Below, piece after piece: positions 1,406-37,031 of a stretch of DNA of 64,000 bases (its first letter is position 1; every line of letters starts with the position of its first letter). Position numbers and translations under genes: made by a program. The notes beneath the pieces are model-generated. The model saw only the letters and a list, made by a program, of their open reading frames with translations. It did no database searches and was not told the origin of the DNA. Source of the DNA: an uncultured cyanobacterium (lineage in GTDB: Bacteria > Cyanobacteriota > Cyanobacteriia > PCC-9006 > JAAUQQ01); the NCBI GenBank assembly GCA_963718615.1, contig OY970368.1, positions 3,200,001 to 3,264,000 on the forward strand, read 5' to 3'.

Positions 1406-2965
1406 ATGGCTCTGGAATCTGCAATGGGCGAAGCGGCCATCGAGGAAAATCTCAAGCAATTTTTGCTGGTGCTTTCGGTTTCCCTCAGCGTCGCGACCCT
1501 CCCTCAAGTTTTTAGCTGGTTTCGCAAAATTCCCTATACGTTGCTACTAGTGATTGCGGGCCTCGGACTGGCGCTCGTGGATGTGCGGTTGGTGAATTTG
1601 TCGCCGGGGCTGATTCTATCGATCTTTTTACCGCCGCTCTTATTTGAGGCGGCCTGGAATCTCAAATGGACGGCCCTGCGCAAAGACCTGGTGCCCATCT
1701 GCCTCTACGCTGTTTTGGGTGTCTTAATTTCAATTATTGGGATTGCCTTCGGCCTCAGCGCCACCGTAGGCCTTCCCCTCACCACTGCCCTGCTGATGGG
1801 TGCAATCCTTTCGGCCACAGACCCGGTCTCCGTCACGGCCCTGTTTCGGGAGCTGGGCGTCGACAAACGCCTCGGCACGCTGATGGAAGGGGAAAGCCTA
1901 TTTAATGACGGCATGGCGGTGGTAGCCTTTAGCTTTTTGGTGGGACTGCCCCTGGGAACCACCACTTTGGGCCTCCAGCCGGTTTTACTGGAGCTGATCC
2001 AGGTCATTGGCATTGGTCTGGGCATTGGTGGACTGATGGGCTTTGGGATTTCCTTCTTGACCCAGCGGTTTGATTTACCCTTGGTCGAGCAGTCCCTGAC
2101 GTTGGTTTCGGCCTATGCAGCCTATTTGTTGACAGAAGATTTGGGCGGCTCCGGTGTGATTGGCGTGGTCACCACGGGGCTGATTCTCGGTAACTTTGGC
2201 TCCAATATTGGCATGAACCCCCGAACGCGGGTGATTGTCAGCGAGTTTTGGGAGTTTCTGGCTTTTTTTGTTAATTCCATCGTCTTTTTGCTGATCGGTG
2301 ACCAGGTGCGGTTTGCGGCCCTGGGGGAAAATCTGCCGATTATTGCCATGACCGTTGCGCTGATGGTGGTGACGCGGGCGATCGCCGTCTACGGTCTAGG
2401 TTGGTTCAGCAACATCACCACCGATTCCGATATTTCCCTACCGGGCCAAACGATTCTTTGGTGGGGGGGGTTACGGGGATCAGTCTCGATCGCCCTTGCC
2501 CTCAGCGTCCCCGTAGTCCTGGGCGAACGGCAAGACATCATCGCCACGGTGTTTGGGGTAGTTTTATTCACGCTTTTGGTTCAGGGATTGACAATTCAGC
2601 CTCTGCTCAAAACACTGGATTTGCTGGGTGATCAGCCTCTGCGCCAAGAATATACTGAGTTGCTGGCACGACAGGCGGCACTGAAGCGAGTTTTAGAATA
2701 TTTGGATCAGATGGATGAACGGCCCGGTGTCGATCCGGAGTTTTTCCGGTACCAAACGACCCTGGTTAAGGGCGAACTCAACCGCATCAGCGAAGATATC
2801 CGTCAACTGCACCGAGATTATCCCAATTTGCAAAGCTTTACGACCGAGCAGTTGCGAGAGGAACTTTTGGCCGTTGAGGCTGATACCTACGCGGAGTTTG
2901 TCCAAGCAGGTCGGCTTAACCGGGAATTAGCTCCCATGCTCCAGCAGATTTTGCAGGCAGACTAA
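1406..2965 (+). CDS. CPA1 Na+/H+ antiporter (NhaS2-like)
   Basis: Multiple TM helices; 'LSATDPVSV', 'MEGESLFNDG' and 'GGLRGSVSIALAL' motifs. Confidence 0.92.
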   Translation: MALESAMGEAAIEENLKQFLLVLSVSLSVATLPQVFSWFRKIPYTLLLVIAGLGLALVDVRLVNLSPGLILSIFLPPLLFEAAWNLKWTALRKDLVPICLYAVLGVLISIIGIAFGLSATVGLPLTTALLMGAILSATDPVSVTALFRELGVDKRLGTLMEGESLFNDGMAVVAFSFLVGLPLGTTTLGLQPVLLELIQVIGIGLGIGGLMGFGISFLTQRFDLPLVEQSLTLVSAYAAYLLTEDLGGSGVIGVVTTGLILGNFGSNIGMNPRTRVIVSEFWEFLAFFVNSIVFLLIGDQVRFAALGENLPIIAMTVALMVVTRAIAVYGLGWFSNITTDSDISLPGQTILWWGGLRGSVSIALALSVPVVLGERQDIIATVFGVVLFTLLVQGLTIQPLLKTLDLLGDQPLRQEYTELLARQAALKRVLEYLDQMDERPGVDPEFFRYQTTLVKGELNRISEDIRQLHRDYPNLQSFTTEQLREELLAVEADTYAEFVQAGRLNRELAPMLQQILQAD

Positions 2966-2975
2966 AGGATCTACC

Positions 2976-5012: not shown

Positions 5013-5352
5013 CTTCCGCCGCTCATGCCCCCGAAAACGTGTTCTAAGTCACAAACCGTGTCAATCCGTAAATTCTCCTAACAACATCAGCAAATGATGA
5101 CCTAAAGCGTGGCAATTCTTGTTATCACAGAATTAGCCCATACATCCGTCCTTAAATCCGTCCAGTCGAACCCCGTCACGGTTGGGTAGAAGCACGTAAG
5201 CACCGTTGCAAGGTTCTTCTGGCTCACGAATAATTCCGCAACCTTCGGGTTCTCAACTTCCCCCTGACGCTGATTATTCTGAGACAAGATTTTATTCTCG
5301 GTGCGCTTTTGGAGAGCGTACAGGGTTTGTCATTGCGCTCCAGGTCATCACC

Positions 5353-6060
5353 ATGCAGATGGATCCTCTCAATAGTCCCCATCCCGTTCCCTGGAGCTGG
5401 ATTCTCGCCACCCACGCCGCTGCTGCGGAGGCGGGCCAACGCCAAGTGCATTACTACCGCTCGGCGTCGTTGCGATCGCCCCAGTCCAGTCCCACCCATC
5501 TCCCCCACTGGACTGCCTATAGCCGTATTTGCTTTGAGGTGGACCCCGTGTTGCATCGCAGTCGGGTGAGCAGCATTTTATTTGTAGAGAATCTAGAAAC
5601 AGGAACGTTGCAGGCGATTACCGCCAGCTCTCCCCTGGCCCAGCAGTTTTGGCAAGAGCAGGGAGGGGTAGATACGGAGACAGGTGTCATGCATGGGGCG
5701 ATCGCCATGCTAATCCCCATTGCCTGGAACCAAGCCGGAACCAAGCTTCTGGCACGGGAGTTTGAGGGCATCTTTTGTAGCTCCTTCGTCACCGACCACG
5801 CGGTCATTTGGGACGGACAGCAGCATTTTAGCCGCACCTATACCCCTCAGATTGACCATGACTATGGCATTCTTCTGGGCTGGAGTGATGTGGAACCTGA
5901 CTCGGTGTTATTTGAAACCGTGATGATGGGACGGGCAGGGCGCGATCGCTATCGCATCAATGCCCATGGCTATACCGAACCCGCACCGGCAGATGAGCCG
6001 AGGCTGTTTGGGCAGATGGTGAGCGATATCCTGGCGGGTCCCCAGGCGGGGCCTCGCTAA
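5353..6060 (+). CDS. conserved cyanobacterial hypothetical protein
   Basis: Long ORF; likely start ATG 5353 ('MQMDPLNSPHPVPWSWI'); host-like codon usage. Confidence 0.6.
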   Translation: MQMDPLNSPHPVPWSWILATHAAAAEAGQRQVHYYRSASLRSPQSSPTHLPHWTAYSRICFEVDPVLHRSRVSSILFVENLETGTLQAITASSPLAQQFWQEQGGVDTETGVMHGAIAMLIPIAWNQAGTKLLAREFEGIFCSSFVTDHAVIWDGQQHFSRTYTPQIDHDYGILLGWSDVEPDSVLFETVMMGRAGRDRYRINAHGYTEPAPADEPRLFGQMVSDILAGPQAGPR

Positions 6061-6070
6061 GCAAGTTCGA

Positions 6071-7639
6071 CTAGAATCCCTGCCAGGGGCTAACCTCTAG
6101 GGCACCATTCGAGCGAAACACGGTCTTGAATTCTGCTACCGCACCTTGACCAGCGGTTGCACCGCTGCTCGTTTTCAGGCTGGGCAAGGGAATTTCCTTT
6201 TGATAATCCTTGGCGGCATCGTTCAGCGGCTCGAAGCCCACGACCTTGCCCTGCTCATCCAGCGTGACGCGGAATTCCAAAGCGCCATCAAAGGTCGGCT
6301 CTTCTGTCCAGTTCTGATCGAGGGCGTCGTAGAGCTCAGTATTTAAGGTTTCAATCCGGTCAGGATCGTCAATCGGCGTTGACGAAGTCACGGCTGACCG
6401 CTGAGACTGGGCGGAGCTTTCAGACTGGCTTTCAGGCTGGCTTTCAGGCTGGCTTTCAGGCTGGGCAAGGGTCGTTGATGTCGTCCCAGGGGCATCGGTC
6501 GAGACTACCGTTTCCGAGGCTGTCGAGGCCGAGGCTGTCGAGGCTGAGGCACCGGTTTCAGAGGCTGCTGCATCGGATCCTTCCCAGGGCTCAACCTGTA
6601 ACTGTCCATCCGGAGCAAAGGTCACACGAAACTGAGCTAGGGGTTCGTTTTGGAGTGCAGCTTCACTGGGCGGACGATAGAGCAATCGCGCCAGGGGTAA
6701 CTCGCCGACAACGCTATCCGCAAAGGCATCCACCCCCCGATAGCCAACAATCTCACCCGCTGCGCTCGCACTAACGCGATAAACCGCATTCTCAGAAAAC
6801 GTCGGATAGGGATACTCGTTCCAAGCATCATTGATCGAGATTTCTAACTCCGCACCGATCGCCTCTATTTCCGTGGCATCGGTAATTGTGGGAGGCTGAA
6901 CTTGAACATCGGTAACCTGCGCCGGATCGGGACGGTCTGCATCCGCTTGAGTCGCTGATGGTGAAGTTTCGGGGGCCGAGGTTTCGGAGGCTGAGGTTCC
7001 AGGGACTGAGGTACTGTCAGAGTTCTTAACGCTGGTCGCAGTCTCAGAGCCCCCTGGCGTGATGGGTCGCCGAACTTCAGGAATGCCCAAGGTAAACAAG
7101 GCAGCGGCGGCAGTCGCCAATCCGGCAGCACCAATGGCCGGTACCACAACCCGCTGTCCCACAGAAGTCTGAGATGGGGTATTACGCTTGGAGAGGGGTT
7201 GGAGAGCCAATTGCAGATGGGGCAAGGTCAGGCGATCGGCCAGACATTGATCAATGGCTTCCACTAAATCAAACAACTGAACCGTGGTTAGCGTCACCTG
7301 CTGCGGGGTCGTGCCCGAGCTTGCTGCGTCGGCCTCTGGGGAAACGGTCAGCTGATGGAGTCCTTCTTCAGTGGGGTGAATTTGGACTAAGCCGGACTGG
7401 AGGTCGCGATCGCGCAATCCACTCAACCGCTCCTGGGCATATCGACTCACCGTCCGCGTCAAATTGGCAAAAAATTCGCTGCCCCCGGACAGTTCTTGCT
7501 CCTGCCCCAAAAACCGGCAAACCGCATTGACCAAAATTGCCATCGAGCCCGCCGTGGACGATTCTGCCCCCGGATCACTCATCCCCTCTAGAAGCAGGGT
7601 GCAGTTCGGCAAATTATAACTTCGTTGAAGCTGCTGCAT
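6071..7639 (-). CDS. DUF4335 domain membrane protein with two tandem C-terminal domains
   Basis: 'RSYNLPNCTLLLEG' N-terminus, 'LTTVQLFDLVEAIDQ', one TM, two repeats ending 'VEPWEG'/'VSPWQG'. Confidence 0.75.
   Translation of the reverse strand: MQQLQRSYNLPNCTLLLEGMSDPGAESSTAGSMAILVNAVCRFLGQEQELSGGSEFFANLTRTVSRYAQERLSGLRDRDLQSGLVQIHPTEEGLHQLTVSPEADAASSGTTPQQVTLTTVQLFDLVEAIDQCLADRLTLPHLQLALQPLSKRNTPSQTSVGQRVVVPAIGAAGLATAAAALFTLGIPEVRRPITPGGSETATSVKNSDSTSVPGTSASETSAPETSPSATQADADRPDPAQVTDVQVQPPTITDATEIEAIGAELEISINDAWNEYPYPTFSENAVYRVSASAAGEIVGYRGVDAFADSVVGELPLARLLYRPPSEAALQNEPLAQFRVTFAPDGQLQVEPWEGSDAAASETGASASTASASTASETVVSTDAPGTTSTTLAQPESQPESQPESQSESSAQSQRSAVTSSTPIDDPDRIETLNTELYDALDQNWTEEPTFDGALEFRVTLDEQGKVVGFEPLNDAAKDYQKEIPLPSLKTSSGATAGQGAVAEFKTVFRSNGALEVSPWQGF
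6417..6463 (-). repeat. 12-bp tandem coding repeat (SQPE x3-4)
   Basis: ctttcag(a/g)ctgg repeated within the DUF4335 linker. Confidence 0.8.
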
Positions 7640-7644
7640 AGGGG

Positions 7645-8265
7645 CTATACCTCTCCGTCAAACAAACTGACCCACAGCCGCTGGGCACCGGCGGTTCCCG
7701 TACAAAACAGCAGCTGCTCCAAAAGCTCTAGGGCCAAAGCATTGAGCTTGTCGTCTTCGCTATAGATCATCACGCCAGCGCGTCGGGGATTCATCCGCTG
7801 CCGAAAATGGGCGCGAAACCGCAGTAAATACTCAGAGAGGCGAAAGTGACTCTCTAGGGGCAGTCCCTTGGCCTTGATCTGCTGCTCCGTCAACAAGAGC
7901 TGGCGAATCACAACGGTAAGACGACGGGCAATATAACAGGTGATTGCCACCAAGGCCTTGGCTTCAATTTGGCGTAGGGGGCGACGCTGGCTGAACCGAC
8001 GCAAGGGATTCGTTCCCCGCAATTGCCAAAGGTGAACGCGATTTTTGATGATGTCATCCAATCCCAGCTCATCCGCCACAATCAGTAGGGCTTCTGAGCC
8101 CCCAAGATCAAGCGCTTCAATGGCCAAAAGAATCAAATCAAGTTGTTGCCGTGCCCGCCGGGGACAAGCATCCTGGTTCATCGGAATATCCGGTAAGCCT
8201 TCGAGGGCAACCGGCACCGATAGAGAAGAAGAAGGAGGGGGCGTGACGCTCACGGAGGCACTCAT
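7645..8265 (-). CDS. DUF3038 domain protein
   Basis: 'LDLILLAIEAL', 'NRVHLWQLRGTNPLRR', 'LLFCTGTAGAQRLWVSLFDGE'; 5 bp upstream of DUF4335. Confidence 0.8.
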   Translation of the reverse strand: MSASVSVTPPPSSSLSVPVALEGLPDIPMNQDACPRRARQQLDLILLAIEALDLGGSEALLIVADELGLDDIIKNRVHLWQLRGTNPLRRFSQRRPLRQIEAKALVAITCYIARRLTVVIRQLLLTEQQIKAKGLPLESHFRLSEYLLRFRAHFRQRMNPRRAGVMIYSEDDKLNALALELLEQLLFCTGTAGAQRLWVSLFDGEV

Positions 8266-8529
8266 AAAGCGGCGAGATCCTGGGGGACGGAAAGGTAAAT
8301 CCTGAACCATTGTCCAAGACCTAACGAAGAGGCCAGGACAATTTTCAATGGAGTTTCACCAAGCTGCATTCTACAAAACTTCAGCAGTACGACATCCGAA
8401 AGAAAACTGAATCCTCATACTCCATCGTCAAGCCCTCATTTTGCAACAAGTTTGCGACGAGTTTGCGACTCAACCTTCCTCGTTTTGCGCTCCTCACTGT
8501 AGCATGCAGGGGGTGAGTGGGTTCATGGC

Positions 8530-9000
8530 CTAGTGATTGCTGATAATCCGCTGTAGGATTTGCAATCCGCTGACCGCTTGCCAACCAAAGATCCCAACAA
8601 GTACGGTGTTGAGCGTGATATGGGTATAGCGTGCCCATTCTGCACCTTTTTGCATAAAGGGCGAGAGCGCAGCGGAGGTGGCAATCAAGCCAGTCATGCC
8701 TAAACCTGCCAACAGGTGAGGGCCGACAAATAGCTTGCCATTATTGATATAAGTCACACTCATGCCGCCAATGGTTCCCAATACCATCAACGCCAAGAGG
8801 ATTGAGCCGGTAACGTAGTGTTTTTGGTTATAGCGGCCCTTGAGCAACTCTTTTTTAAGGTCGCCTTCGGCGGTGCGGGTGCGTCGCCACTGAAATCCTT
8901 GGTAGGCCGCATAGAGGGTCAAACCAAACAACACCCACATCAGGGCTGGATGGAAAAAATTAAGGCCAAATTTGACGTCGGAAGGCAGGTCGAAGCTCAT
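8530..9000 (-). CDS. DUF4079 membrane protein (cytochrome b561-like His pattern)
   Basis: 'FFHPALMW', 'NNGKLFVGPHLLAGLGM', four TMs; start ATG 9000. Confidence 0.8.
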   Translation of the reverse strand: MSFDLPSDVKFGLNFFHPALMWVLFGLTLYAAYQGFQWRRTRTAEGDLKKELLKGRYNQKHYVTGSILLALMVLGTIGGMSVTYINNGKLFVGPHLLAGLGMTGLIATSAALSPFMQKGAEWARYTHITLNTVLVGIFGWQAVSGLQILQRIISNH

Positions 9001-9120
9001 GGGGTTTCTCTCTGAAACTGCGCGGGGGTTTTGGGGCGATCGCCCATCAACAGGCATCACCCATCAACAGACATCGCCCCAAAATTTACAAAAGTTAACC
9101 CAATTATAGGGAAGAAACCG

Positions 9121-10719
9121 CTAGTGCAAGAAATGCCGTACGCCGGTCATGGCCATCACCAGCCCCAGTTGATTGGCGGCATCAATGGAATCCTGGTCCC
9201 GCAAACTGCCGCCGGGCTGAACGATCGCCCGAATTCCCGCTGCCGCCGCCGTCTGCACTGAGTCGTCGAAGGGGAAGAACCCATCACTGGCTAAAATCGC
9301 CCCCTGGGCCTGGGTTCCGGCCTGTTCGAGCGCAATCTTGACGGAACCGACTCGATTCATTTGGCCTGCGCCAATGCCGAGGGTAGCGCGGTGGTGGGTC
9401 ACGACGATCGCATTGGATTTCACATGGCGAACCACTTTCCAGGCAAAGAGCAGCTCGGCCAGCAAGGCATCGTCAGGTTGTTGATCGGTGACAATTTTCC
9501 AGTCGGCAGGGGTGGCCGCAAGGTCATCGGCGGCTTGGGCGAGAAATCCCCCGGCGATCGCCTTGACGGTTTCCCGAGGACCGCTCAGCAAATCGGGGAG
9601 CACCAAAACCCGCAGATTTTTCTTGGTTTTGAAAATTTCTAGGGCTTCATCGCTACAGCCGGGGGCCACAATACATTCCAGGAACGTTTGGGTCATGGCC
9701 TGGGCCGTGGCGGCGTCGAGGAGACGATTAACAGCAACAATCCCGCCAAAGGCTGAGACCGAATCGGCCTCAAAGGCTGCTTGATAGGCTTGAACCAAGC
9801 TATCTCCCAGGGCCACACCACAGGGGTTGTTGTGCTTCAGGACCGCTGCTGCGGGAGATTCGCTGGTATCCGCAAATTCGGCAATGATTTGCCGGGCGGC
9901 TTCGAGGTCCACTAGATTGTTGTAGCTCAACGCTTTGCCCTGGAGTTGTTGAGCCACCGCCCAGCCCCTAGGGGTTGCACCGGTTTGATACCAGGCTGCG
10001 GCTTGGTGGGGGTTTTCGCCGTAGCGCAGGGGCTGGATTTGCTGACCACTGAGGCTCCAGGCTTGGGGCAGGCTGACGGTTTCGGAGGATGGGGGAGCCG
10101 CCTGGGGGAGCGAGTCAGGGTTCTGCTGGGCCAGATTTTGGGCCAAATACCGCACGATCGCCCCATCGTAAGCCGCCGTATGCTCAAACGCCGCCAGCGC
10201 ACAGTCTCGCCGGAAGGCCAGGGGCACGGTGCCGTTGTGGTCCACCAGGGCTTGCAAATAGGATGCATACTGGCTGGGTTTACACAAAATGGTGAGATAG
10301 GCATGGTTTTTGGCCGCTGCCCGCACCATCGTCGGCCCACCAATGTCGATGTTTTCGATCGCTATGTCCAGCGTCACATCGGGTTTGGCCACGGTCTGCT
10401 CAAAGGGATAGAGATTGACCACGACCAAATCAATCGGCTGAATGTCATTGGCCGTGAGATCCGCTTGATCCTCAGGCATATCGGGTCGAGACAGGATCCC
10501 CCCATGGATACGGGGATGCAAGGTTTTGACCCGCCCGCCTAAAATCTCCGGGGACCCGGTATAGTCCGAAACCTTAGTGACCGGAAGGCCCGCCGCTTTG
10601 AGCACCTGAGCTGTGCCGCCGCTGCTGATAATTGAAAAGTCAAACTCTTGAACCAGGCGCTGAGCCAGTTCAACGATGCCGGTTTTATCCGAAACGCTCA
10701 GCAGTGCAAGCCGTCCCAT
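9121..10719 (-). CDS. purH: bifunctional AICAR transformylase/IMP cyclohydrolase
   Basis: 'ALLSVSDKTG', 'GGRVKTLHP', 'IDIGGPTMVRAAAKN', 'LRYGENPHQ', 'GVRHFLH'. Confidence 0.98.
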   Translation of the reverse strand: MGRLALLSVSDKTGIVELAQRLVQEFDFSIISSGGTAQVLKAAGLPVTKVSDYTGSPEILGGRVKTLHPRIHGGILSRPDMPEDQADLTANDIQPIDLVVVNLYPFEQTVAKPDVTLDIAIENIDIGGPTMVRAAAKNHAYLTILCKPSQYASYLQALVDHNGTVPLAFRRDCALAAFEHTAAYDGAIVRYLAQNLAQQNPDSLPQAAPPSSETVSLPQAWSLSGQQIQPLRYGENPHQAAAWYQTGATPRGWAVAQQLQGKALSYNNLVDLEAARQIIAEFADTSESPAAAVLKHNNPCGVALGDSLVQAYQAAFEADSVSAFGGIVAVNRLLDAATAQAMTQTFLECIVAPGCSDEALEIFKTKKNLRVLVLPDLLSGPRETVKAIAGGFLAQAADDLAATPADWKIVTDQQPDDALLAELLFAWKVVRHVKSNAIVVTHHRATLGIGAGQMNRVGSVKIALEQAGTQAQGAILASDGFFPFDDSVQTAAAAGIRAIVQPGGSLRDQDSIDAANQLGLVMAMTGVRHFLH

Positions 10720-21399: not shown

Positions 21400-22032
21400 A
21401 TGGCAATGCTGGCGATGGCAAGCTTGAATAATCAGCAAAATAATCCGGGGCAGGGTAATCCGGGGCAGCGTCATTCAGGACAGTATCGTCCCTCTCCCTC
21501 TGGCAACGGCCTCACCAGCGCTCAGGCCCAGGCTGCTGGAGCTTTGATGACGCAAAGCGATAACCGGGTGACGGCGAGCTATATTTTTTGGCTGATGTTT
21601 TTGACGGGCTTTGGGGGGCTCCATCGGCTTTACAACGGCAAGATTTTTACAGGGGTTTTGTGGCTTTGTACCTGGGGACTGTTCGGGGTTGGGCAAATTA
21701 TCGATTTGTTTCTGATTCCCGATATGGTCGATGCCCGACGAATGCAGCTATTGCGTCGGGCTGGATTGCTCCAGCCCGGTGCCGTGGGGGTCCCTAGGGC
21801 AGTAGCGACCCAGCCCTTGGAGAAGCCGACGCGGGAGCAGTTGATGGTGCAGTTATTGCAGGCGGCGCGATCGCGCCAAGGCCGACTTACGGTTCCCCAA
21901 GCCGTCATGGATACTCAGCTCAGCTTTGATGAAATTGAAGACCTCCTAAGGGAAATGCACCGCAAGGGCTACGCTTCCATAGATAACGATTTGGAAACCG
22001 GGGTGATTGTGTATCACTTCGTGGGTCTCTAA
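21400..22032 (+). CDS. TM2/NINE domain membrane protein with C-terminal winged helix
   Basis: '[38 protein letters not shown]'. Confidence 0.85.
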
Positions 22033-22101
22033 CCCTAAATCTCTAGCCCGAAAAAAGACCAATGGGGTTATCCATCGGTCCAATCACTCAAGGTTGCTCG
22101 G

Positions 22102-22419
22102 TTACTTGCCCGCGCAAGGGTTACCTTTGGCCGCACAGGGGTTTGCCTTACCCGCACAGGGATTTGCCTTGGCGGCGCAGGGATTGACTTTACCGGCGCA
22201 GGGATTGCTCTTGGCGGCGCAGGGATTTTCCTTGCCCGCACAGGGATTATTTTTTGCAGCGCAGGGATTTTCCTTCACCTGAGTGGTCGCGGGCGTTGTG
22301 CCTTCGCCAGATTTGACACCTGCACAGGGATTGGCACTGGAACAGCCTGTGGCTAAGCCGCCGACGCCAAGACTCAAAACAGAAAACGCAGCGAGGGTGG
22401 CCCAATATTTAACGCGCAT
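22102..22419 (-). CDS. Cys-rich lipoprotein of xNPCA[A/G]K heptad repeats
   Basis: Signal peptide plus lipobox LATG-C; 9 NPC motifs, 8 of them tandem heptads; start ATG 22419 (alternative GTG 22461). Confidence 0.85.
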   Translation of the reverse strand: MRVKYWATLAAFSVLSLGVGGLATGCSSANPCAGVKSGEGTTPATTQVKENPCAAKNNPCAGKENPCAAKSNPCAGKVNPCAAKANPCAGKANPCAAKGNPCAGK

Positions 22420-22483
22420 GGTTGTAGTTCTCGATTTACTCAAAGAATGGGTTTCGGTCACTCCCCTATTGAGACAAGGGTGG

Positions 22484-22611
22484 CTGAGTTTTTGCTGAGA
22501 ATGGCCTAATACAGGGTTAAGAACTGGAGATCAAACCGCTGAGAAACCGGTGGGGTGGGGCAGGGCCATTTTTCTCAGGTAAATTTCAGCTTTTTGTCAG
22601 TGGGACATCAG
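22484..22611. promoter_or_regulatory. two oppositely oriented arrays of 11-bp-phased TCAG boxes (putative OmpR-family binding sites)
   Basis: TCAG at 22575, 22586, 22597, 22608; CTGA at 22484, 22495, 22539 with CTAA 22506 and TTAA 22517 in phase. Confidence 0.65.
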
Positions 22612-22797
22612 CCTCTTCTGCCAGTCTGGGTGACAGATAGGACAGAGGGCTGAGGGCTGGGCACAAAAACCTATGGTTCGTTGCCAGAATGGTAACCCCA
22701 GGTCTGGCGATCGCCACTCAAGGTATGAATCAGAACAGGTTGAATGAGCTATTTAGAGGGCAAGATTGTGAAAGAAGTTCTACGACGGCGCTCCACC

Positions 22798-23400
22798 ATG
22801 AGCAACCAAGACTGGCATGTAACCAACAACAGCGAATGCATCAAACCCAGCCCCGAGGTCCTGGTGCCAGAGCCGATTGTGCCCTATCGGCTCTATCGCT
22901 TTTTGACCGATCTCGAAGAAATTTTGCTGCGGGATACGGACGATGGGATTCGGCTCCAAAAAATCAGCCCCCTGGTGCGGCATTTGCTCGACAATTCCCC
23001 CTGGATTGAACTGCAATTTTTGCCCCCTGACCCGGAAACCGGCTGGTCTGTCACGATGCTCTATGACGAACCGGATTATCCCTTGACCATTCAGCTCGTC
23101 AGTTGGATGCCGGGGATGGTGTCACCGATTCATAACCATGCCGCCTGGGGTTTGGTGGCGATCCTCAGTGGTCAAGAAAAAAATACGTTCTGGCGGCGAT
23201 CGCCCCAAACCGGTAGCCTCGAACCGGCGGGCGATCGCATTCTCTCCCCCGGTGATGTCATAACGTTTATGCCCGACGCAATTCATCAGGTTGAGGCCCT
23301 GGGGAATGAGCCGGTGATTAGTTTTAATCTATATGGTGAGACTGAGTTCGATCGTCGCTTCGAATACGACCCCGAAACCGGAGCCGCTCAATTGTTTTAG
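22798..23400 (+). CDS. cysteine-dioxygenase-like cupin
   Basis: 'SPIHNHAAWGLV' and 'DAIHQV' 3-His cupin motifs; ORF could extend upstream to ATG 22744. Confidence 0.85.
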   Translation: MSNQDWHVTNNSECIKPSPEVLVPEPIVPYRLYRFLTDLEEILLRDTDDGIRLQKISPLVRHLLDNSPWIELQFLPPDPETGWSVTMLYDEPDYPLTIQLVSWMPGMVSPIHNHAAWGLVAILSGQEKNTFWRRSPQTGSLEPAGDRILSPGDVITFMPDAIHQVEALGNEPVISFNLYGETEFDRRFEYDPETGAAQLF

Positions 23401-23452
23401 GGAGCAGCCCACTGGTGCTCTTGTTTGGTCTAATGTTCCGCAACCGCTGTTG

Positions 23453-24877
23453 ATGCCTGGTCAAGTTCCCCGCCAGAAAAGCAATTCCCCAGCCCCTTCG
23501 CTGGGGACAAAGCTGACTGTTCAGGTGGCTATTCTGTCGGCCTTAGGGCTGAGCGGCATTACCGGCTGGGCCATTTGGCAAATGCAACAGATCCTTGTGG
23601 GGTCCCATCAACAGACGTTGGACTATGTGGCCGAGCGTTTTCCAGCCCAGTTAGAAAATGCCATGGCGGCCCACGGGGGAAGCCAAGCCGTTGAAGTAGA
23701 GTTGACCCAGGCCGTCGAACGGATTTCGAGCGATCGCCTCATGGTCTGGATCGCCAATGACCAAGGCCAGGTGCTGGCCCGCTCTGCCAAGGCTTCGGCG
23801 GACACACTGACACTGGATGAACTCTTTCCCTACGTCACGATGGCGTCACGATCGCGCCTGTTGCACTTGGGCGATCGCTATTTGCTCATTTGCGGTCGTC
23901 GCTTGATGCCTCAAAATGCCGCCCTGGGTCAGCTCTATTTGGTCCTGGATGTAACGGAAGAACAGGAAAGATTATTAACCGGAGCCCGTAATTTAGTGCT
24001 GGCAGCAGTGCTGGTATTTTTGGGATTGATTGGCGCGATCGCCTACAGTATTCGCCAAGCCACCCAACCGCTCCAAATCATTAGCCAGACTGCAAGCGCC
24101 ATCTCCGCGAGAAATCTAGGCGAAACCCGGCTGGAACTGGCCCAAGCGCCAGCGGAAATTGTTGGGTTAGTCGAAGCCTTTAATGCCATGTTGGAACGGT
24201 TGGCGATCGCCTGGGGCAAACAGCGGCAATTTGTCAACGACGCCTCCCATGAGCTGCGAACCCCGTTGGCGATCGTTCAAGGCTATGTCCAGAGCGTGCT
24301 GCGACGCCCCAGCAATCTTACCCCCCGCCAAGTCGAAAGCCTCGAAACCGCCGCCGAAGAGGCCGAACGCACAATTCAGCTTCTCCAGGAAATGCTAGAC
24401 CTGGCTCGATCTGAAAATGGAGAGTTGGCCATACAGATGGAACCCATCACGCTTCAGCCCCTACTCAAAGAAGCCGCCGCCGCCGCCGAGGTGCACCATC
24501 AGCGGACGATCGTTTTAGAATTACCCTCAGATCCTATTGTCGCCTTGAGTGACGCCATGCATCTACGGCAGGTCCTGCGCAACTTACTGGAGAATGCCAT
24601 TCAGTACTCCGAAGCTTCAGTGCAGATTGAGTTGAGTCAGCAAGAGTATGGCGCTGTGATTGCCGTGCGCGATCGCGGTATCGGCATCTCTCCCGAACAA
24701 CAAGCCCACATCTTCGAGCGCTTCTACCGCGCCGATGAAGCCCGCCATCGCCAAGGCGGCACTGGCCTCGGCCTTGCCCTCGTCAAAGCTCTGGTTGAAG
24801 CCATGGGGGGCCAAATCACCGTCCAATCTCAACTCAACCAAGGCTCCACCTTCACCCTAACCCTCCCCCATCCCTAA
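23453..24877 (+). CDS. sensor histidine kinase (2 TM, HAMP, HisKA, HATPase)
   Basis: 'DASHELRTPL', 'NLLENAIQY', 'DRGIGI', 'GGTGLGL'; start approximate. Confidence 0.93.
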   Translation: MPGQVPRQKSNSPAPSLGTKLTVQVAILSALGLSGITGWAIWQMQQILVGSHQQTLDYVAERFPAQLENAMAAHGGSQAVEVELTQAVERISSDRLMVWIANDQGQVLARSAKASADTLTLDELFPYVTMASRSRLLHLGDRYLLICGRRLMPQNAALGQLYLVLDVTEEQERLLTGARNLVLAAVLVFLGLIGAIAYSIRQATQPLQIISQTASAISARNLGETRLELAQAPAEIVGLVEAFNAMLERLAIAWGKQRQFVNDASHELRTPLAIVQGYVQSVLRRPSNLTPRQVESLETAAEEAERTIQLLQEMLDLARSENGELAIQMEPITLQPLLKEAAAAAEVHHQRTIVLELPSDPIVALSDAMHLRQVLRNLLENAIQYSEASVQIELSQQEYGAVIAVRDRGIGISPEQQAHIFERFYRADEARHRQGGTGLGLALVKALVEAMGGQITVQSQLNQGSTFTLTLPHP

Positions 24878-24910
24878 CGCCCCCACCCCATCACCCCATT
24901 ACCTCCCCCC

Positions 24911-25588
24911 ATGAACACCCACATTCTCGTCGTTGAAGATGAAATCAAACTCGCCCGACTCCTAGAGCTAGAATTAGTCGAGGAAGGCTACGAGGTGACG
25001 GTGGCCAATGATGGCTTATCGGGCTTAACCAGTGCCCGTGACAGCAACCCCGATTTGCTGATTTTGGACTGGATGTTGCCGGGAATTTCGGGTGTGGAAA
25101 TTTGCCGCAGATTGCGATCGACCGGGATTAAAACCCCAATCATTTTGCTCACTGCAAAGGACGAAGTTTCCGCCCGCGTCGAAGGGTTAGATGCGGGGGC
25201 CGATGATTATGTGGTCAAGCCCTTTAGTTTGGAAGAATTGCTGGCACGGGTGCGATCAAATTTGCGTCGAGTCCAGCCTAACGAAGCAGAACGTCTAGAG
25301 TTTAGCGATTTGCGCTTGGATCGAAAGACGCGGGAAGTCTGGCGGGGCGATCGCCTCATCGAACTCACGGTCAAGGAGTTTGATTTACTGGAATACTTGC
25401 TGGCACACCCTCGCCAAGTGATTACCCGTGACCAAATCCTAGAGAAGGTTTGGGGCTACGATTTTATGGGAGATTCCAATATTATTGAGGTCTACGTGCG
25501 TTATCTGCGGCTGAAATTAGAAGACCAGGGCGAATCTCGGCTGATTCAGACAGTACGGGGTGTGGGCTATGTGTTGCGGGAGGGGTGA
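24911..25588 (+). CDS. OmpR-family response regulator (NblR/Rre28-like)
   Basis: 'LDWMLP', 'GADDYVVKPF', 'IEVYVRYLRLKL', 'IQTVRGVGY'. Confidence 0.93.
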   Translation: MNTHILVVEDEIKLARLLELELVEEGYEVTVANDGLSGLTSARDSNPDLLILDWMLPGISGVEICRRLRSTGIKTPIILLTAKDEVSARVEGLDAGADDYVVKPFSLEELLARVRSNLRRVQPNEAERLEFSDLRLDRKTREVWRGDRLIELTVKEFDLLEYLLAHPRQVITRDQILEKVWGYDFMGDSNIIEVYVRYLRLKLEDQGESRLIQTVRGVGYVLREG

Positions 25589-32787: not shown

Positions 32788-33702
32788 CTAAGATCGCTTC
32801 TGGTGTGTCGATGTTTGGGAGTCAGATTCAGAGGATTTTGCCGGGAGTGCCTTCAAGTTCTCAGAGCGCTGGTGAGCGGAGCGTTTACGAAAACTGTCCG
32901 CCTTGATTTCGAGAATGACCGCATGGTGAATGAGGCGGTCAACGGCGGCGACGGTCATCATGGAATCACCAAAGATGGAGTTCCACTCACTGAACGGCTG
33001 ATTGGCAGTGACCATGATGCTTTTGCGCTCATAGCGATAGGCAATGAGTTCAAAGAGAACGGAGGTTTCTGCCTCGGATTTTTGGACATAGCCGAGGTCA
33101 TCAATGATCACGAGGTCAAAGCGGTCGAGCTTTTTCAGGGCAGGCTGAAGCTGGAGATGAAGCTTTTCTTTTTGGAGATACTGCACCAGGGTGGTGGCAC
33201 AGAAGAATTTGACGCGCTTGCCCGCTTCCAGGGCGGCACGAGCGATGCCAGCGGCCAGATGGGTTTTGCCGACCCCAGAAGGTCCGAAGAAGAGACAGTT
33301 TTGGGCGTCATCAATCCACTGGGGTTCAGTGGCGAGTTTTTGAATCGGGAGAGGGTTAACCAGGGGCAGGTGTGTCCAATCGAAATTGGAAACCGTTTTG
33401 GCGTTGGGCAGTTGAGCTTCGGTGATGGCTCTTTGGAGGCGCAAAGCCTTGCGGCGGTCTGTTTCGAGTTGGCACAGGGCCAAGAGAAATTGCGCGTAGG
33501 ACCAGGTCTCTCGCATGGCTTGCTGCTCCAAGGTCTCCCAGTGGTTGAGCATATGGGATAAGCGCAGGTGCTTGAGCTGAGCGCTGAGGCTTTGGTAAGG
33601 GCTCAGCTCCGGTTGAGACGAGCTCTGGTTCTGCATCTGGGATGACGCTGCTGTGGGTGAACAGAAGGGCATCGTAGTCGTTGAGGTCATGTTGTTGGAC
33701 AT
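32788..33702 (-). CDS. istB: IS21 helper ATPase IstB
   Basis: 'GPSGVGKTHLA', 'IIDDLGY', 'AVDRLIHH'; true start may be downstream (about 33634). Confidence 0.95.
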   Translation of the reverse strand: MSNNMTSTTTMPFCSPTAASSQMQNQSSSQPELSPYQSLSAQLKHLRLSHMLNHWETLEQQAMRETWSYAQFLLALCQLETDRRKALRLQRAITEAQLPNAKTVSNFDWTHLPLVNPLPIQKLATEPQWIDDAQNCLFFGPSGVGKTHLAAGIARAALEAGKRVKFFCATTLVQYLQKEKLHLQLQPALKKLDRFDLVIIDDLGYVQKSEAETSVLFELIAYRYERKSIMVTANQPFSEWNSIFGDSMMTVAAVDRLIHHAVILEIKADSFRKRSAHQRSENLKALPAKSSESDSQTSTHQKRS

Positions 33703-35146
33703 TCACGGTGGGGAATTCGAGTTTGGTGAGCAACTGAAAATGGAGTCTGAGCCTTGAGAGGGTGAGGGTTTTGGCCTCAATCTCTGGGAAGAGGTAGTCA
33801 GCGACCGCCGCTTCCTTGTTTTGGGTCGCCGCAATATAGAGGGCTTCGACCATGAGCACGGCGGCAGAATCAAGCTCAAAGCCAGCCTGGAGCTGTTTCC
33901 AGAGTTGGTGATAGCGCTCATTGGGCAGGAGGTCCTCTCGCCAGGTGCTGTGGAGGAAGGCCAAGGGCTTTTTGCGCAACCCTTCGATGACATGGTGATA
34001 GTCCACCGAGCGGGCGCGCCGCTTGTCCTTGTCAGTAGAACGAATCCGTTTCAACCTGAACACTTCATGGCCTTCGAGGTAGCCCATCAGGCGGTTGTGG
34101 TGCAGATGCACTTCCAGGGACCGGCCAATTAAGCGAGACGGCACGCTGTAGAGCATGCAGCGGATATCAATCGTGCTGTTGCTGCTCACCTTAGCGGTGA
34201 GGAGTTCGTAGTCCGCAGCCCGGTATTTGGGCAACGCCTGGAGATGCGCTTTCTCATGCTCATACTTATCCTGATGCTGGGCATTGAGCTTGGCCACACA
34301 GTCATTGAGCAGGTCTTGATAGTCGCTGACGCTAGCGAAGTCGGTGCTGCCGCGCAGGTACATCGCTTGGACAATGCGGTTCTTCAGATGACCGTGGGGG
34401 CCTTCAATAGAACCGTTCTCGTGGGCGATTCCCCGGTTGTTTCGCGTCGGTTGCAACCGATAGTGCTCACACAGGTCGTCATACAAGCGCGTCAGCGGTT
34501 TGGTCTTCTTCCCACCCAGATTTCGATAGGCCGCACTCAGGCTATCGGTGCGATGCTGCTTTGGAGCCCCGCCGCAGGCAAACAGGGCATTCTGCAATCC
34601 TTCGGATAGGGCGACAAAGCTTTCACCCCCCTCGATTAACTCCGCGTAGGACCAGCCGCTGTAGCCCAAGCGGTAGTGATAAATCAAGTGCTCATAGGGC
34701 TTTCCATTTATCGTCACCACCGTCCCTTTGAGTTCGGTGAAGTCGGAAAATCCTTGCACCCCCGGCTCGTGACGCAGCTCAAACATCACCTCGGGAGCTG
34801 GACCATACAGTGCTTTCCAGGTTCTCACTCGCCGCTGAAGCGTCCTGAGCACTTGCGGATATTGACCCGGATATTTGTCCTGCAAATGCTCAAATAACGT
34901 CGTCGGTTTCAGTCTTGGCTCAGCTCGCAGCATCGCCTCTAGTTCGGCTTCCCAAAGACCGTTGAGTGGATCTGGCCGGGTCCGCACCCCGGTGCCCTCT
35001 CCACTCCCCTGCTGCCACTCGTTGGCATCCATTCGTTGCGCGGTTCGCACCGAAAATTCCGCCACCGCTGCCGCATCTTGCTGCGACAGGCCATGCTCCT
35101 TTGCATTCATGTACACTCGCTGTTGATACATTATTACTCTCGACAC
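33356..35146 (-). CDS. istA: IS21 transposase IstA
   Basis: 'RTRPDPL', 'FSDFT', 'HRTDSLSAA', 'HENGSIE', 'YSVPSRLIG'. Confidence 0.95.
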   Translation of the reverse strand: MSRVIMYQQRVYMNAKEHGLSQQDAAAVAEFSVRTAQRMDANEWQQGSGEGTGVRTRPDPLNGLWEAELEAMLRAEPRLKPTTLFEHLQDKYPGQYPQVLRTLQRRVRTWKALYGPAPEVMFELRHEPGVQGFSDFTELKGTVVTINGKPYEHLIYHYRLGYSGWSYAELIEGGESFVALSEGLQNALFACGGAPKQHRTDSLSAAYRNLGGKKTKPLTRLYDDLCEHYRLQPTRNNRGIAHENGSIEGPHGHLKNRIVQAMYLRGSTDFASVSDYQDLLNDCVAKLNAQHQDKYEHEKAHLQALPKYRAADYELLTAKVSSNSTIDIRCMLYSVPSRLIGRSLEVHLHHNRLMGYLEGHEVFRLKRIRSTDKDKRRARSVDYHHVIEGLRKKPLAFLHSTWREDLLPNERYHQLWKQLQAGFELDSAAVLMVEALYIAATQNKEAAVADYLFPEIEAKTLTLSRLRLHFQLLTKLEFPTVNVQQHDLNDYDALLFTHSSVIPDAEPELVSTGAEPLPKPQRSAQAPALIPYAQPLGDLGAASHARDLVLRAISLGPVPTRNRPPQGFAPPKSHHRSSTAQRQNGFQFRLDTPAPG

Positions 35147-36224: not shown

Positions 36225-37031
36225 CTAGTTTTGATTTCTCACTTCCCATTGAAATATTATATCATTTTCAAATATATCGATTAATTTAATGAGTACGAAA
36301 AAAGTCGATCCGACTGGTTGTATGATTGCAATCATTCCTTTTTCCATTCTCGCGAAGTGACTAGGAAACCTAAAAACCATTGGATCAGTGATGTCTCCAA
36401 AGCTGCTTGCTCCCGCAGCCACTCTTACAGCGCCATTATTACTCGAAAGATCTACAGATCCATGAGTTGGCTGTAAAGTAACCCATTTTATAGGGATGCT
36501 TCGTAAATCTGTTTTACTGAAATGCACTTCAATACTTATCCCACTGTGAACTACTGGAACACGTCTCTTGCCATTACCGTAGATTTTGTGTATTTCTCCA
36601 TATTCAAACGCTTCTTCCTCAACAGCAGCTCGTAACTTCCTATTAAAAAAACTCACGCTTATATTGTTTTCTAACAATTTCCTAAATCCTTGTGAATAAA
36701 TCGTTCCGTTAGGATCTAAGACACCTATAACAACTTCAGTTATTCCTGAGTTGATTATTAACTCTGCACAAGATTGAATATCTTGGTCATCAAATAGTTT
36801 AACGCACGGCTCTAAAGTTGTGTAGATAGTTGAGCCACGAAGTTGATCGGCACATATTTTCTCTATTGCTACACGTTCGGCATGGTCATTACCCCGTTCA
36901 CCACGATAGCCAGTTGCAAGAAGTTCTCCGCTTTTCGCGATCACAGCCCCCACCCGAGGATATTTCGTACATTTGAGGTGTTCCTCAATTGCCATTTTCA
37001 TAAAGTCTGTTTTTGAAAATATTTTTATCAT
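36225..37031 (-). CDS. RibD-like zinc-dependent deaminase with unknown C-terminal beta-rich domain
   Basis: 'PRVGAVI', 'HAE', 'TLEPC...C', 'IGVLDPN'; no reductase domain. Confidence 0.85.
   Translation of the reverse strand: MIKIFSKTDFMKMAIEEHLKCTKYPRVGAVIAKSGELLATGYRGERGNDHAERVAIEKICADQLRGSTIYTTLEPCVKLFDDQDIQSCAELIINSGITEVVIGVLDPNGTIYSQGFRKLLENNISVSFFNRKLRAAVEEEAFEYGEIHKIYGNGKRRVPVVHSGISIEVHFSKTDLRSIPIKWVTLQPTHGSVDLSSNNGAVRVAAGASSFGDITDPMVFRFPSHFARMEKGMIAIIQPVGSTFFVLIKLIDIFENDIIFQWEVRNQN

Follow-up and report, generated by a model that had tools for sequence, protein, structure and literature searches.

The closest described relatives, in concept, of the system presented here are the bufferins and oxazolins, which are Sec-exported, cysteine-containing RiPPs (peptides made by ribosomes and then modified post-translationally) that are modified by multinuclear non-heme iron-dependent oxidases (MNIOs) and chelate copper (PMC11626156, PMC12452194 and PMC11252979, in their accessible parts). 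The genes that define bufferin clusters encode MNIO, DUF2063, DoxX, a sigma factor and NrsF (accessible part of PMC12452194), and in Caulobacter these clusters are induced by copper and protect against it (accessible part of PMC11626156). The present analysis concerns a locus in a 64,000-nucleotide stretch of DNA from an uncultured cyanobacterium (assembly GCA_963718615.1, contig OY970368.1, positions 3,200,001 to 3,264,000; this whole stretch is called the window). Here, at positions 22102 to 25588, a lipoprotein built of repeated Asn-Pro-Cys (NPC) motifs is encoded divergently from a cupin related to thiol dioxygenases, a sensor histidine kinase and an OmpR/PhoB-type response regulator. The NPC protein and the cupin were identified as a conserved cyanobacterial gene pair, and by analogy the module looks like a bufferin/oxazolin-like exported cysteine-peptide stress system that is undescribed in this form.

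As far as the accessible parts of those papers go, bufferins and oxazolins share with the NPC system the small, signal-bearing and cysteine-dependent protein, a repeated cysteine motif (EGKCG in oxazolins), the company of DoxX and of sigma/anti-sigma genes, fusions to cytochromes and a neighbouring iron oxygenase; the window peptide, too, is a signal-bearing potential precursor with conserved cysteines. However, the motif of the window peptide is NPCAxK and not EGKCG or DUF2282, and the peptide is a lipoprotein by its predicted lipobox. The oxygenase-like neighbour is a mononuclear three-histidine (3-His) cupin, regulation is by a two-component system, no MNIO was found in the window, in its genome or in 19 cyanobacterial genomes with the NPC pattern, and no DUF2063 was found in the window. 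DAG-RiPPs, which are hybrids of RiPPs and lipoproteins, resemble the system in that a small peptide with a lipoprotein signal is encoded beside an iron oxygenase, but they involve ChrH-type MNIOs and macrocycles (accessible part of PMC13056109), whereas modification of the window peptide is putative. A repeated NPC tripeptide also occurs in CdeC of the Clostridioides difficile exosporium, a cysteine-rich, self-assembling extracytoplasmic spore protein of 405 amino acids with six consecutive Asn-Pro-Cys repeats (accessible part of PMC7677010). In CdeC, however, the triplets are contiguous, neither heptad nor lipobox is present and the context is unrelated, the resemblance being one of motif only.

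For the cupin, the thiol dioxygenases are the nearest known proteins, among them 3-mercaptopropionate dioxygenase (3-MDO; 6xb9, 4tlf), 8vni and cysteine dioxygenase (CDO), with which it has in common the cupin fold, the three-histidine site and the Ser and Tyr of the catalytic triad. It differs in having Asn in place of the triad His, and in being tied in the genome to a cysteine-repeat protein and regulators rather than to sulfur catabolism. The kinase and regulator resemble heavy-metal two-component systems (CusRS, CopRS and SilRS; TIGR01386/TIGR01387) and the oxidant sensor HprSR in architecture and as best-scoring families, but they score under the family cut-offs, the first gene of their operon encodes the cupin, and the sensor, which lacks a Met/His cluster, has a single Cys and a single His that are invariant. 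The Synechocystis copMRS genes form an operon which includes a periplasmic stress effector, an arrangement comparable to that of the window. Periplasmic reducing pathways consisting of CcdA/DsbD and a thioredoxin of the TlpA, ResA or ScsC type, of which the copper-stress proteins ScsABCD are an example, have a counterpart in the many cyanobacteria that encode a TlpA-like lipoprotein and DsbD_TM, in some cases with thioredoxin reductase, beside the cupin. Those thioredoxins differ by their N-terminal NPC tail, while the window encodes the tail only and its genome has the thioredoxin and CcdA genes 1.3 Mb away.

In the literature searched, supplementary tables lying outside the search, no description was found of the NPCAxK repeat, of its pairing with the cupin clade or of the corresponding module of Picosynechococcus PCC 7002; the strings NPCAAK, NPCAGK and PCAAK were absent, and PCAGK occurred only in an unrelated preprint. 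The term 'NPC repeats' led only to CdeC, and the string 'NPC' is absent from the accessible text of PMC12452194. A PCC 7002 tag, G0157, listed as 'unknown' in a lumen proteome, could not be mapped to the genes of the module.

Gene anatomy of the NPC-repeat locus

The features of the locus, with positions counted in the window, are as follows.

22102..22419, minus strand: NPC-repeat lipoprotein gene (105 amino acids; stop codon 22102-22104; signal peptide, Cys26, nine NPC motifs)
22105..22275, minus strand: tandem array of eight heptads xNPCA[A/G]K (21-nt unit, 42-nt super-unit; Tandem Repeats Finder)
22056..22081, minus strand: terminator-like hairpin and T-run directly 3' of the peptide stop (10-pair stem with 5 GC pairs, then TTTTT)
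22485..22499, plus strand: candidate response-regulator site TGAG-N7-TGAG, a direct repeat with 11-bp period
22574..22588, minus strand: second candidate site TGAA-N7-TGAG, in opposite orientation
22798..23400, plus strand: thiol-dioxygenase-like 3-His cupin (200 amino acids; open reading frame (ORF) opens at 22744; assigned by sub-threshold Pfam matches, PDB profile search and AlphaFold2/Foldseek)
23453..24877, plus strand: sensor histidine kinase (ORF opens at 23333; HAMP, HisKA, HATPase_c)
24911..25588, plus strand: OmpR/PhoB-type response regulator (Response_reg and Trans_reg_C)

An upstream GTG at 22461 lengthens the peptide ORF to 119 amino acids (22102..22461, minus strand), and the internal ATG at 22419 is the start shared with homologues, giving 105 amino acids. 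The signal peptide (MRVKYW...GGLATG) ends in the lipobox L-A-T-G-C26 with Cys26 as predicted lipidation site. The call follows the general lipobox rule and was made by eye and by regular expression rather than by a dedicated predictor; C26 is invariant in 12/12 aligned peptides, and a lipobox-like motif was identified in 78/120 homologues with an ad hoc expression. The mature chain consists of nearly nothing but Ala, Pro, Lys, Cys and Asn. Its first NPC motif, ANPCAGV, is followed by a spacer and then by the other eight motifs in tandem, in the order ENPCAAK, NNPCAGK, ENPCAAK, SNPCAGK, VNPCAAK, ANPCAGK, ANPCAAK and GNPCAGK-stop, so that AAK and AGK alternate strictly. Consistent with this alternation, Tandem Repeats Finder scored the 42-nt unit (3.5 copies, score 165) above the 21-nt unit (8.1 copies in 22105-22275, score 123).

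The peptide gene is real, lies in the minus-strand frame and is under purifying selection. This is based on several observations: the repeats differ from one another in synonymous third positions (AAT/AAC, CCC/CCT, TGC/TGT, GCN, AAA/AAG), and in a contig of a related strain (run X1) 8/9 listed substitutions within 22220-22419 are synonymous in the minus-strand frame, the ninth being Thr>Ala. To these are added the starts of the homologues, the hairpin and the absence of any match to the reversed control pattern described below. An overlapping plus-strand ORF (22007-22282) was rejected as a shadow of the repeat, since the strain differences are synonymous in the minus frame, and a CaaX-like reading of the C-terminus (...CAGK-stop) was rejected, since homologues have other C-terminal ends. 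On plasmid pAQ7 of PCC 7002 (NC_010474.1, locus positions 6001-6314) RefSeq has a hypothetical protein on the strand opposite the NPC gene (RS16885), and the NPC reading frame is absent from the RefSeq table at this locus. Probably, this is a wrong-strand annotation caused by the repeat, and automatic pipelines may pick the wrong strand over NPC repeats in general.

Neither the window peptide nor any of four further NPC peptides had a Pfam or NCBIfam match, even with E values allowed up to 10, the coverage of bufferin models by NCBIfam being unchecked. The nearest cluster in the ESM Atlas is a 'putative lipoprotein' of Cyanobacteriota without a family, and in databases the peptide is named 'hypothetical protein'. 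The sole hint of expression is given by an environmental RNA run (X9) with two 151-nt contigs of at least 99% identity, both on the cupin only; a further run (X10) gave nothing, and in a search of sequencing runs none contained half or more of the sampled words of the sequence.

Peptide and cupin genes are divergent across about 380 bp. With Pfam, the cupin matched Cupin_2 (22.7 bits, cut-off 27.2) and CDO_I PF05995 (17.5 bits, cut-off 23), in both cases below the curated threshold. A search of PDB sequences with a profile of 21 orthologues identified 3-mercaptopropionate dioxygenase 6xb9 at 2.5e-16, further 3uss/4tlf, mercaptosuccinate dioxygenase 8vni and then CDO, and for the AlphaFold2 model (predicted local distance difference test, pLDDT, 91.8) Foldseek found 6xb9/4tlf, with a template-modelling (TM) score of 0.75 and 27-30% identity. 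H112, H114, H163, S175, N177 and Y179 are invariant in 21/21 sequences; the three histidines align with the iron-ligand HxH...H of 3-MDO in a cupin fold. The Ser-His-Tyr triad of CDO and MDO is not kept in full, as S175-F-N177-L-Y179 stands against S-I-H-V-Y in 6xb9/3uss. By sequence and model, the cupin appears as a CDO/MDO-like protein of the thiol-dioxygenase type, with thiol oxidation as putative activity. No signal peptide was seen in it, which argues for a cytoplasmic protein. Databases name it 'cupin', 'cysteine dioxygenase family protein' or 'predicted metal-dependent enzyme'. It belongs to a distinct clade, of which all named members among the best 120 of 1184 hits are cyanobacterial. 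Complex predictions of the cupin with the full peptide and Fe gave ipSAE values of 0.73, 0.01 and 0.01; their median lies below the mark, and they were not used as evidence.

The cupin family has a second, paralogous clade with about 44-55% identity, of Nostocales type, which was identified in L061-L070 and L076 and in 46/46 sampled genomes of one family. NPC, kinase and regulator genes are missing from its neighbourhood, and it is flanked by a protein of about 161 amino acids and one of 156-173 amino acids, the latter matching TIGR01616 'nitrogenase-associated protein' (ArsC/Spx-like).

Orthologues of the kinase begin at M41 (23453), which identifies the apparent overlap of kinase and cupin as an ORF artefact. 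A sensor domain of about 140 residues lies between two hydrophobic segments, assigned by eye as transmembrane, and is followed by HAMP, HisKA and HATPase_c, with the OmpR-type regulator as partner. The best NCBIfam match over the full length is the heavy-metal sensor kinase TIGR01386 (224.2 bits, cut-off 292.55). For the regulator, NblR (282.5 bits), PhoB (243.1 bits) and the heavy-metal regulator TIGR01387 (239.6 bits, cut-off 279.2) were obtained, all below cut-off, and it also resembles the HprR model. Few residues between the hydrophobic segments are invariant in 10/10 orthologues, and of these H92 and C187 (ORF numbering) are the only candidate metal ligands of the sensor domain.

A TGAR-N7-TGAR pattern was identified in 10/10 intergenic regions linked to a two-component pair, often with one pair per orientation (15 matches against 0.68 expected from shuffles), and in 0/2 regions of the type with an extracytoplasmic function (ECF) sigma factor. 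Since the pattern was chosen after inspection of 8 of the 10 regions, the remaining two (L046 and L057) carrying it too, this count is no clean test, and a matrix made from 13 sites of other genomes was used instead. Scored with it, the site at 22485 comes first among the 956 core matches that the 6.1-Mb genome contains, and the site at 22574..22588 ranks 36th. In the related strain, no difference is listed in 22435-22526, while the remainder of the spacer is full of changes. These candidate sites suggest that the regulator autoregulates its operon and co-regulates both divergent promoters. A site upstream of a distant thioredoxin-CcdA gene pair ranks 37th, and elements there are similar to those conserved in the promoters of the cupin loci.

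The sequence-only reading, an earlier interpretation made from the letters of the window, had described a lipobox LATG-C, a mature peptide of almost only xNPCAxK heptads with nine NPC motifs (eight of them tandem, alternating AAK and AGK), and a gene divergent from a 3-His cupin, a periplasm-sensing kinase and an OmpR regulator. ORF translation and Tandem Repeats Finder agree with the former, ORF and domain scans with the latter. Its description of the cupin as CDO-like was upheld by profile search and Foldseek, with the correction that the triad His is Asn, and its periplasm-sensing kinase was upheld too, the best NCBIfam match being a heavy-metal sensor family. It had seen no recognised RiPP maturase in the window; correspondingly, no MNIO, YcaO, lanthipeptide or radical-SAM family member and no DUF2063, an RRE-like partner (RiPP recognition element), was detected among 60 scanned window ORFs of at least 70 amino acids, and MNIO PF05114 is absent from the whole, 100%-complete genome.

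Conservation of the pair and spread of the repeat

Two samples were used to follow the linkage. The first consisted of 401 genomes of the cyanobacterial phylum, searched with a degenerate DNA pattern for NPCA-xxx-NPCA and with a reversed-pattern control. The pattern was identified in 19/401 genomes, the control giving 0 in every genome listed. In 17/19 positive genomes, from eight genera, no more than 2.2 kb separates it from the best cupin match; the remaining two have single matches that contain Glu and lie on other contigs. A protein with at least two xPC motifs within 6 kb accompanies 20/24 cupins of the orthologue clade versus 0/16 of the paralogue clade. MNIO PF05114 was found in 0/19 pattern-positive genomes versus 39/401 overall. 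The cyanobacterial NPC repeat is MNIO-independent, these genomes carrying the cupin instead.

For the second sample, one genome per species was searched for three heptad-spaced NPCA motifs, and 80 loci were taken from at least 119 stretches. According to record titles, 49 of these are cyanobacterial, 3 are from an 'uncultured bacterium', 1 is a metagenome-assembled genome (MAG) labelled Sphingobacterium in which the gene order is cyanobacterial, and 27 come from other phyla; the first three groups are referred to as the 53 cyanobacterial-type loci. ORFs in foreign loci were called by a simple longest-ORF rule. A hidden Markov model of the cupin found it in 45/53 cyanobacterial-type loci and in 0/27 loci of other phyla. 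In five of the eight cupin-less loci the available sequence ends within 1 kb of the NPC gene, L153 has no full NPC ORF by the ORF caller, and L105 and L125 are true negatives. Both genes are present in 44 loci; in 36 of these they are directly adjacent, and the orientation is divergent in 41, co-directional in 2 and convergent in 1; many loci come from Microcoleus and Coleofasciculus, by which these counts overstate independence. The cupin is followed by kinase and regulator genes in 29/44 loci, while in Nostocales-type loci a SigK-like ECF sigma factor and an RskA-type anti-sigma factor follow. As regulators vary or are not seen while the cupin stays, the invariant pair consists of cupin and NPC protein.

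Two plasmids, pAQ7 of PCC 7002 (NC_010474, about 180.1-184.0 kb, with a DoxX-like gene) and one of strain NIES-970, also carry the divergent arrangement of peptide and cupin-kinase-regulator genes. The genes for peptide, DoxX and cupin are co-directional in Leptolyngbya BL0902, with a kinase/regulator pair nearby; a gene for an FAD oxidoreductase adjoins the peptide. The Sphingobacterium-labelled locus (L145, 'MAG: Sphingobacterium thalpophilum') has the order VTT, DoxX-like, NPC peptide, and divergently cupin-kinase-regulator, with a DoxX-like protein 97.7% identical to that of PCC 7002, and its contig is probably mis-binned or a contaminant. In Picosynechococcus-type loci a 131-residue four-helix membrane protein, a weak DoxX/MauE relative, is encoded directly after the free NPC peptide (L042, 8108-8500). 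DoxX/MauE-like proteins recur beside NPC peptides in two MAGs, one from the Myxococcota and one proteobacterial (L089, 6370-6804; L120, 8428-8889).

Homologues of the peptide comprise 231 near-length and 290 longer clusters from cyanobacteria and at least ten other lineages. In the best 120 near-length homologues the consensus is K-A-N-P-C-A-[A/G/S]-K with a spacing of seven in 349 cases versus six in 72; Asn is present in 85% and Ala in 95% of 715 motifs at their motif positions. NPC chains of these 120 contain about 10% Cys and essentially no aromatic residues. Judged by sequence, the NPC repeat is a pan-bacterial exported module without a Pfam or NCBIfam model. Beside the cupin, the repeat is carried in 44 loci by 16 free proteins (under 150 amino acids), as N-terminal tail by 11 TlpA-like thioredoxins and as tail by 17 YHS proteins, annotated 'YHS domain-containing (seleno)protein' (NF041384, 153.9 bits). 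After thioredoxin-type carriers comes a gene for a DsbD_TM/CcdA-like membrane protein, in some loci with genes for thioredoxin reductase, thioredoxin and peroxiredoxin as well; the reductase is genuine (TIGR01292, 375 bits, above cut-off). In the genome of the window, a TlpA-like thioredoxin with a single NNPCAAK after its signal peptide is followed by a CcdA-like gene (4553772-4555224, 1.3 Mb from the locus). Other fusions, found in Proteobacteria, Tectomicrobia, Myxococcota, Acidimicrobiia and others, join the repeat to SoxA/TsdA-type cytochrome c (often on both sides), cytochrome P460 and DM13, and the proteobacterial variant P0188 has Met and His within the repeat.

Outside cyanobacteria, neighbours were counted in 25/27 loci, two without an NPC gene by the ORF caller being left out. 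Recurrent among them are DUF6969 (7 loci), MtrC/F-like multiheme cytochromes (5), sulfatase-modifying-type proteins resembling formylglycine-generating enzyme (FGE-sulfatase-like, 3), DsbD_TM with thioredoxin, DoxX or DoxX-like membrane proteins, and ECF sigma factors with NrsF. The DUF6969 genes, by locus position, are:

L094 3691-4401, L099 4361-5833, L102 301-1224, L120 1519-2436, L121 5346-6506, L126 4709-5443, L148 6311-6898

DUF6969 (PF22308) has invariant His-rich motifs (HYP..D, YYHAH, EHGHFH) and may be a metal-binding partner or an enzyme. Its profile is not similar to that of the cupin (hhalign probability 0.5%), and it had no match among PDB sequences; for its AlphaFold2 model (pLDDT 89.1) Foldseek gave no match at E <=0.001, and VIA-align gave only short helical matches with Z <=7.5.

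In two alphaproteobacterial loci, the NPC peptide lies within a full bufferin gene set, MNIO-DUF2063-DoxX-sigma-NrsF. In Afipia massiliensis DSM 17498 (L124; NZ_JACHIJ010000002.1, 2158-8371) the genes for thioredoxin, DsbD_TM, NPC peptide, a 309-residue protein, MNIO, DUF2063, DoxX, sigma and NrsF run in one direction. In a Parvibaculaceae MAG (L094, 1888-7650), MNIO, DUF2063, DoxX and DUF6969 genes are divergent from those for the NPC peptide and DUF6789, with sigma and NrsF genes nearby. The sole candidate precursor in both clusters is the NPC-repeat peptide, which looks like an undescribed class of MNIO precursor there.

From the absence of such linkage in other genomes the sequence-only reading would have taken its own refutation; linkage was found, with the cupin in 45/53 loci and adjacent in 36/44. 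Its analogy to MNIO-modified exported cysteine peptides gained from the two bufferin-type clusters. With regard to the partners, the cupin held as the invariant one, and the two-component pair did not, being exchanged for ECF sigma/anti-sigma genes or not seen in many loci. The repeat is not peculiar to this peptide; it is pan-bacterial and also fused to thioredoxins, YHS proteins and cytochromes. Overall, that interpretation stands in part: the four genes are a real conserved module, while the scope of the repeat, the constancy of the two-component pair and the cupin triad had to be corrected.

A possible soft-metal buffer and its rivals

Taking sequence, structure prediction and gene neighbourhood together, the locus may be an inducible periplasmic poly-thiol buffer for soft metals, in particular copper, under two-component control; the probability of this favoured reading is put at about 0.45, somewhat short of even. 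The locus would then represent a conserved envelope-stress module of cyanobacteria in its free-standing form. The kinase would sense a periplasmic signal by its sensor domain, in which one Cys and one His are invariant, and phosphorylate the regulator, which would bind the TGAR direct repeats with 11-bp spacing between the two divergent genes and switch on both promoters. To the left, a lipid-anchored, disordered poly-thiol peptide would be produced, with nine solvent-exposed cysteines each flanked by Pro and Lys, capturing soft metal ions in the periplasm, most likely Cu(I), as bufferins and oxazolins do in other bacteria. To the right, the cytoplasmic cupin and more kinase and regulator would be made; the cupin might deal with what the same stress does to a thiol or metal in the cytoplasm, leaving the peptide untouched. 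The thiols of the peptide could be kept reduced by the distant TlpA-like thioredoxin/CcdA pair with its single NPCAAK motif. This route is suggested by NPC-tailed thioredoxins with DsbD_TM/CcdA, with or without thioredoxin reductase, beside the cupin elsewhere, and by the pair at 4.55 Mb in the own genome with its site of rank 37/956. The soft-metal reading was placed first on account of the bufferin-type association of the repeat, the family resemblance of the kinase, the YHS fusions and the Met/His variants elsewhere.

Several points weigh against it. The repeat is without His and Met (0.1% each in the 120 homologues), and no gene for a copper or other metal transporter was seen in about 100 loci inspected. 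Free thiols in an oxidising periplasm tend toward disulfides. The recurring thioredoxins, CcdA, thioredoxin reductase, peroxiredoxin and glutathione S-transferase (GST) suit a pure redox function equally well, and this reading offers no compelling account of why it is the cupin that stays invariant as a partner and not the regulators. In 13/44 loci with cupin and NPC genes no adjacent regulator was seen, kinase and regulator both score under the curated heavy-metal cut-offs, and to these come the uneven genus sampling and the choice of the promoter pattern after inspection, mentioned above.

The invariance of the cupin is what an enzyme-substrate relation would account for. Accordingly to this alternative, the CDO-like cupin would stand in for MNIO and oxidise the repeat cysteines in the cytoplasm before Sec/lipoprotein export, giving a modified (lipo)peptide metallophore. 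It is kept as the main rival, though an unlikely reading, because the cupin is invariant, resembles thiol-acting enzymes and is replaced elsewhere by MNIO, FGE-like proteins or DUF6969. The cupin remains the neighbour whatever the carrier (17 YHS, 16 free, 11 thioredoxin) and bears the Fe-binding 3-His site of thiol dioxygenases, MNIO is missing from the repeat-bearing cyanobacteria as described, and the non-cyanobacterial repeat adjoins other candidate cysteine-modifying or metal-dependent proteins (MNIO with DUF2063 in 2 loci, FGE-sulfatase-like in 3, DUF6969 in 7). In both Leptolyngbya BL0902 and PCC 7002 the peptide gene is followed by one for DoxX or a DoxX-like protein, as in bufferin clusters (accessible part of PMC12452194), and RiPP precursors of lipoprotein type are documented (accessible part of PMC13056109). 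However, 41/44 pairs are divergent and not co-transcribed, unlike most precursor-maturase pairs; Asn replaces the catalytic triad His in 21/21 cupins; DUF2063 or another RRE-like partner was not found in the window; and the 27 non-cyanobacterial NPC loci lack this cupin. Known peptide-acting thiol dioxygenases (plant cysteine oxidases, PCO, and cysteamine dioxygenase, ADO) use an N-terminal Cys only, and an N-terminal Cys of the peptide exists only after export. In addition, a sulfinate product would be a poorer soft-metal ligand than a thiol. Doubtful to the same degree is the extension of this idea, in which the cupin would be a new RiPP-style mononuclear 3-His iron maturase of NPCAxK cysteines, free or appended to thioredoxin and YHS proteins, with membrane-anchored metallophores as products, and NPC proteins would be a third large bufferin-like family for which lineages recruited MNIO, FGE-like proteins, DUF6969 or the cupin.

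The soft-metal buffer has further to be compared with readings that do without a metal. The poly-Cys tail might scavenge oxidants or electrophiles (H2O2, HOCl, quinones) or relay disulfides as a pure thiol-redox buffer, recycled by TlpA-like thioredoxin, CcdA and thioredoxin reductase. All fusion partners are extracytoplasmic redox proteins (TlpA-type thioredoxin, YHS (seleno)protein, SoxA/TsdA and P460 cytochromes, DM13), the neighbours include DsbD_TM/CcdA, thioredoxin reductase, thioredoxin, AhpC/Redoxin, GST and Hsp20, the alternative regulator is a SigK/RskA-like ECF pair, and both the single invariant Cys in the sensor domain and the resemblance of the regulator to HprR would fit. But the bufferin-type copper clusters L094 and L124 have the same redox genes, so that redox neighbours do not discriminate; nine evenly spaced cysteines without a partner Cys motif are unlike known redox-active sites, and no peroxidase or methionine sulfoxide reductase (Msr) gene is consistently linked. 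This reading was judged quite unlikely. Very improbable is a role as sulfur carrier, in which the cysteines would hold sulfane sulfur or thiosulfate like the swinging arm of SoxY while the cupin clears a cytoplasmic thiol by-product. In 7 loci the repeat flanks a SoxA/TsdA-type cytochrome c domain on both sides, L108 has a YeeE/YedE-type sulfur transporter gene, and the nearest solved relatives of the cupin oxidise 3-mercaptopropionate and mercaptosuccinate; on the other hand, sox, sqr and rhodanese genes were not found in the cyanobacterial loci, and the cytochrome fusions occur outside cyanobacteria. The lowest chance was given to an inert feature, that is, a low-complexity lipoprotein tether or a spurious ORF. 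It could draw on the opposite-strand RefSeq ORF over the PCC 7002 homologue, on the missing family model and on the lack of an RNA contig over the peptide. Against it are the 8/9 synonymous strain differences, the conserved signal peptide and lipobox Cys, the near-invariant N-P-C-A core, a frame that runs on into thioredoxin, YHS and cytochrome domains, and repeats at C-termini and on both sides of domains, unlike a tether.

With this module, a large unannotated family of exported cysteine-repeat proteins would be added to the known envelope defences against metals and thiol stress, and cyanobacteria, largely without MNIO beside these genes, would have their own version of the bufferin idea. 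A whole clade of 'cupin / cysteine dioxygenase family' proteins (1184 clusters) gains a concrete partner and regulators. Should the cupin act on the peptide, a new enzyme chemistry and a new RiPP class would result; should it not, a testable copper- or redox-stress regulon would still be at hand in the transformable PCC 7002 (pAQ7).

Other genes of the window

A gene for DUF4079 was considered as part of the module and rejected: in the window it adjoins purH, 13 kb away (8533-10719), and the purH pairing explains locus L052, where the purH/DUF4079 pair also flanks YHS-NPC and cupin genes. The recurrence of DUF4079 near these modules may partly be an effect of the purH neighbourhood. Between 30410 and 37325, the window contains a PIN-domain ORF, an HTH_37 protein, several ORFs without a family, a protein with a Mu-transposase C-terminal domain (33359-35146) and a cytidine/deoxycytidylate deaminase-like ORF (36228-37031). 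This patch may be a mobile or defence islet.

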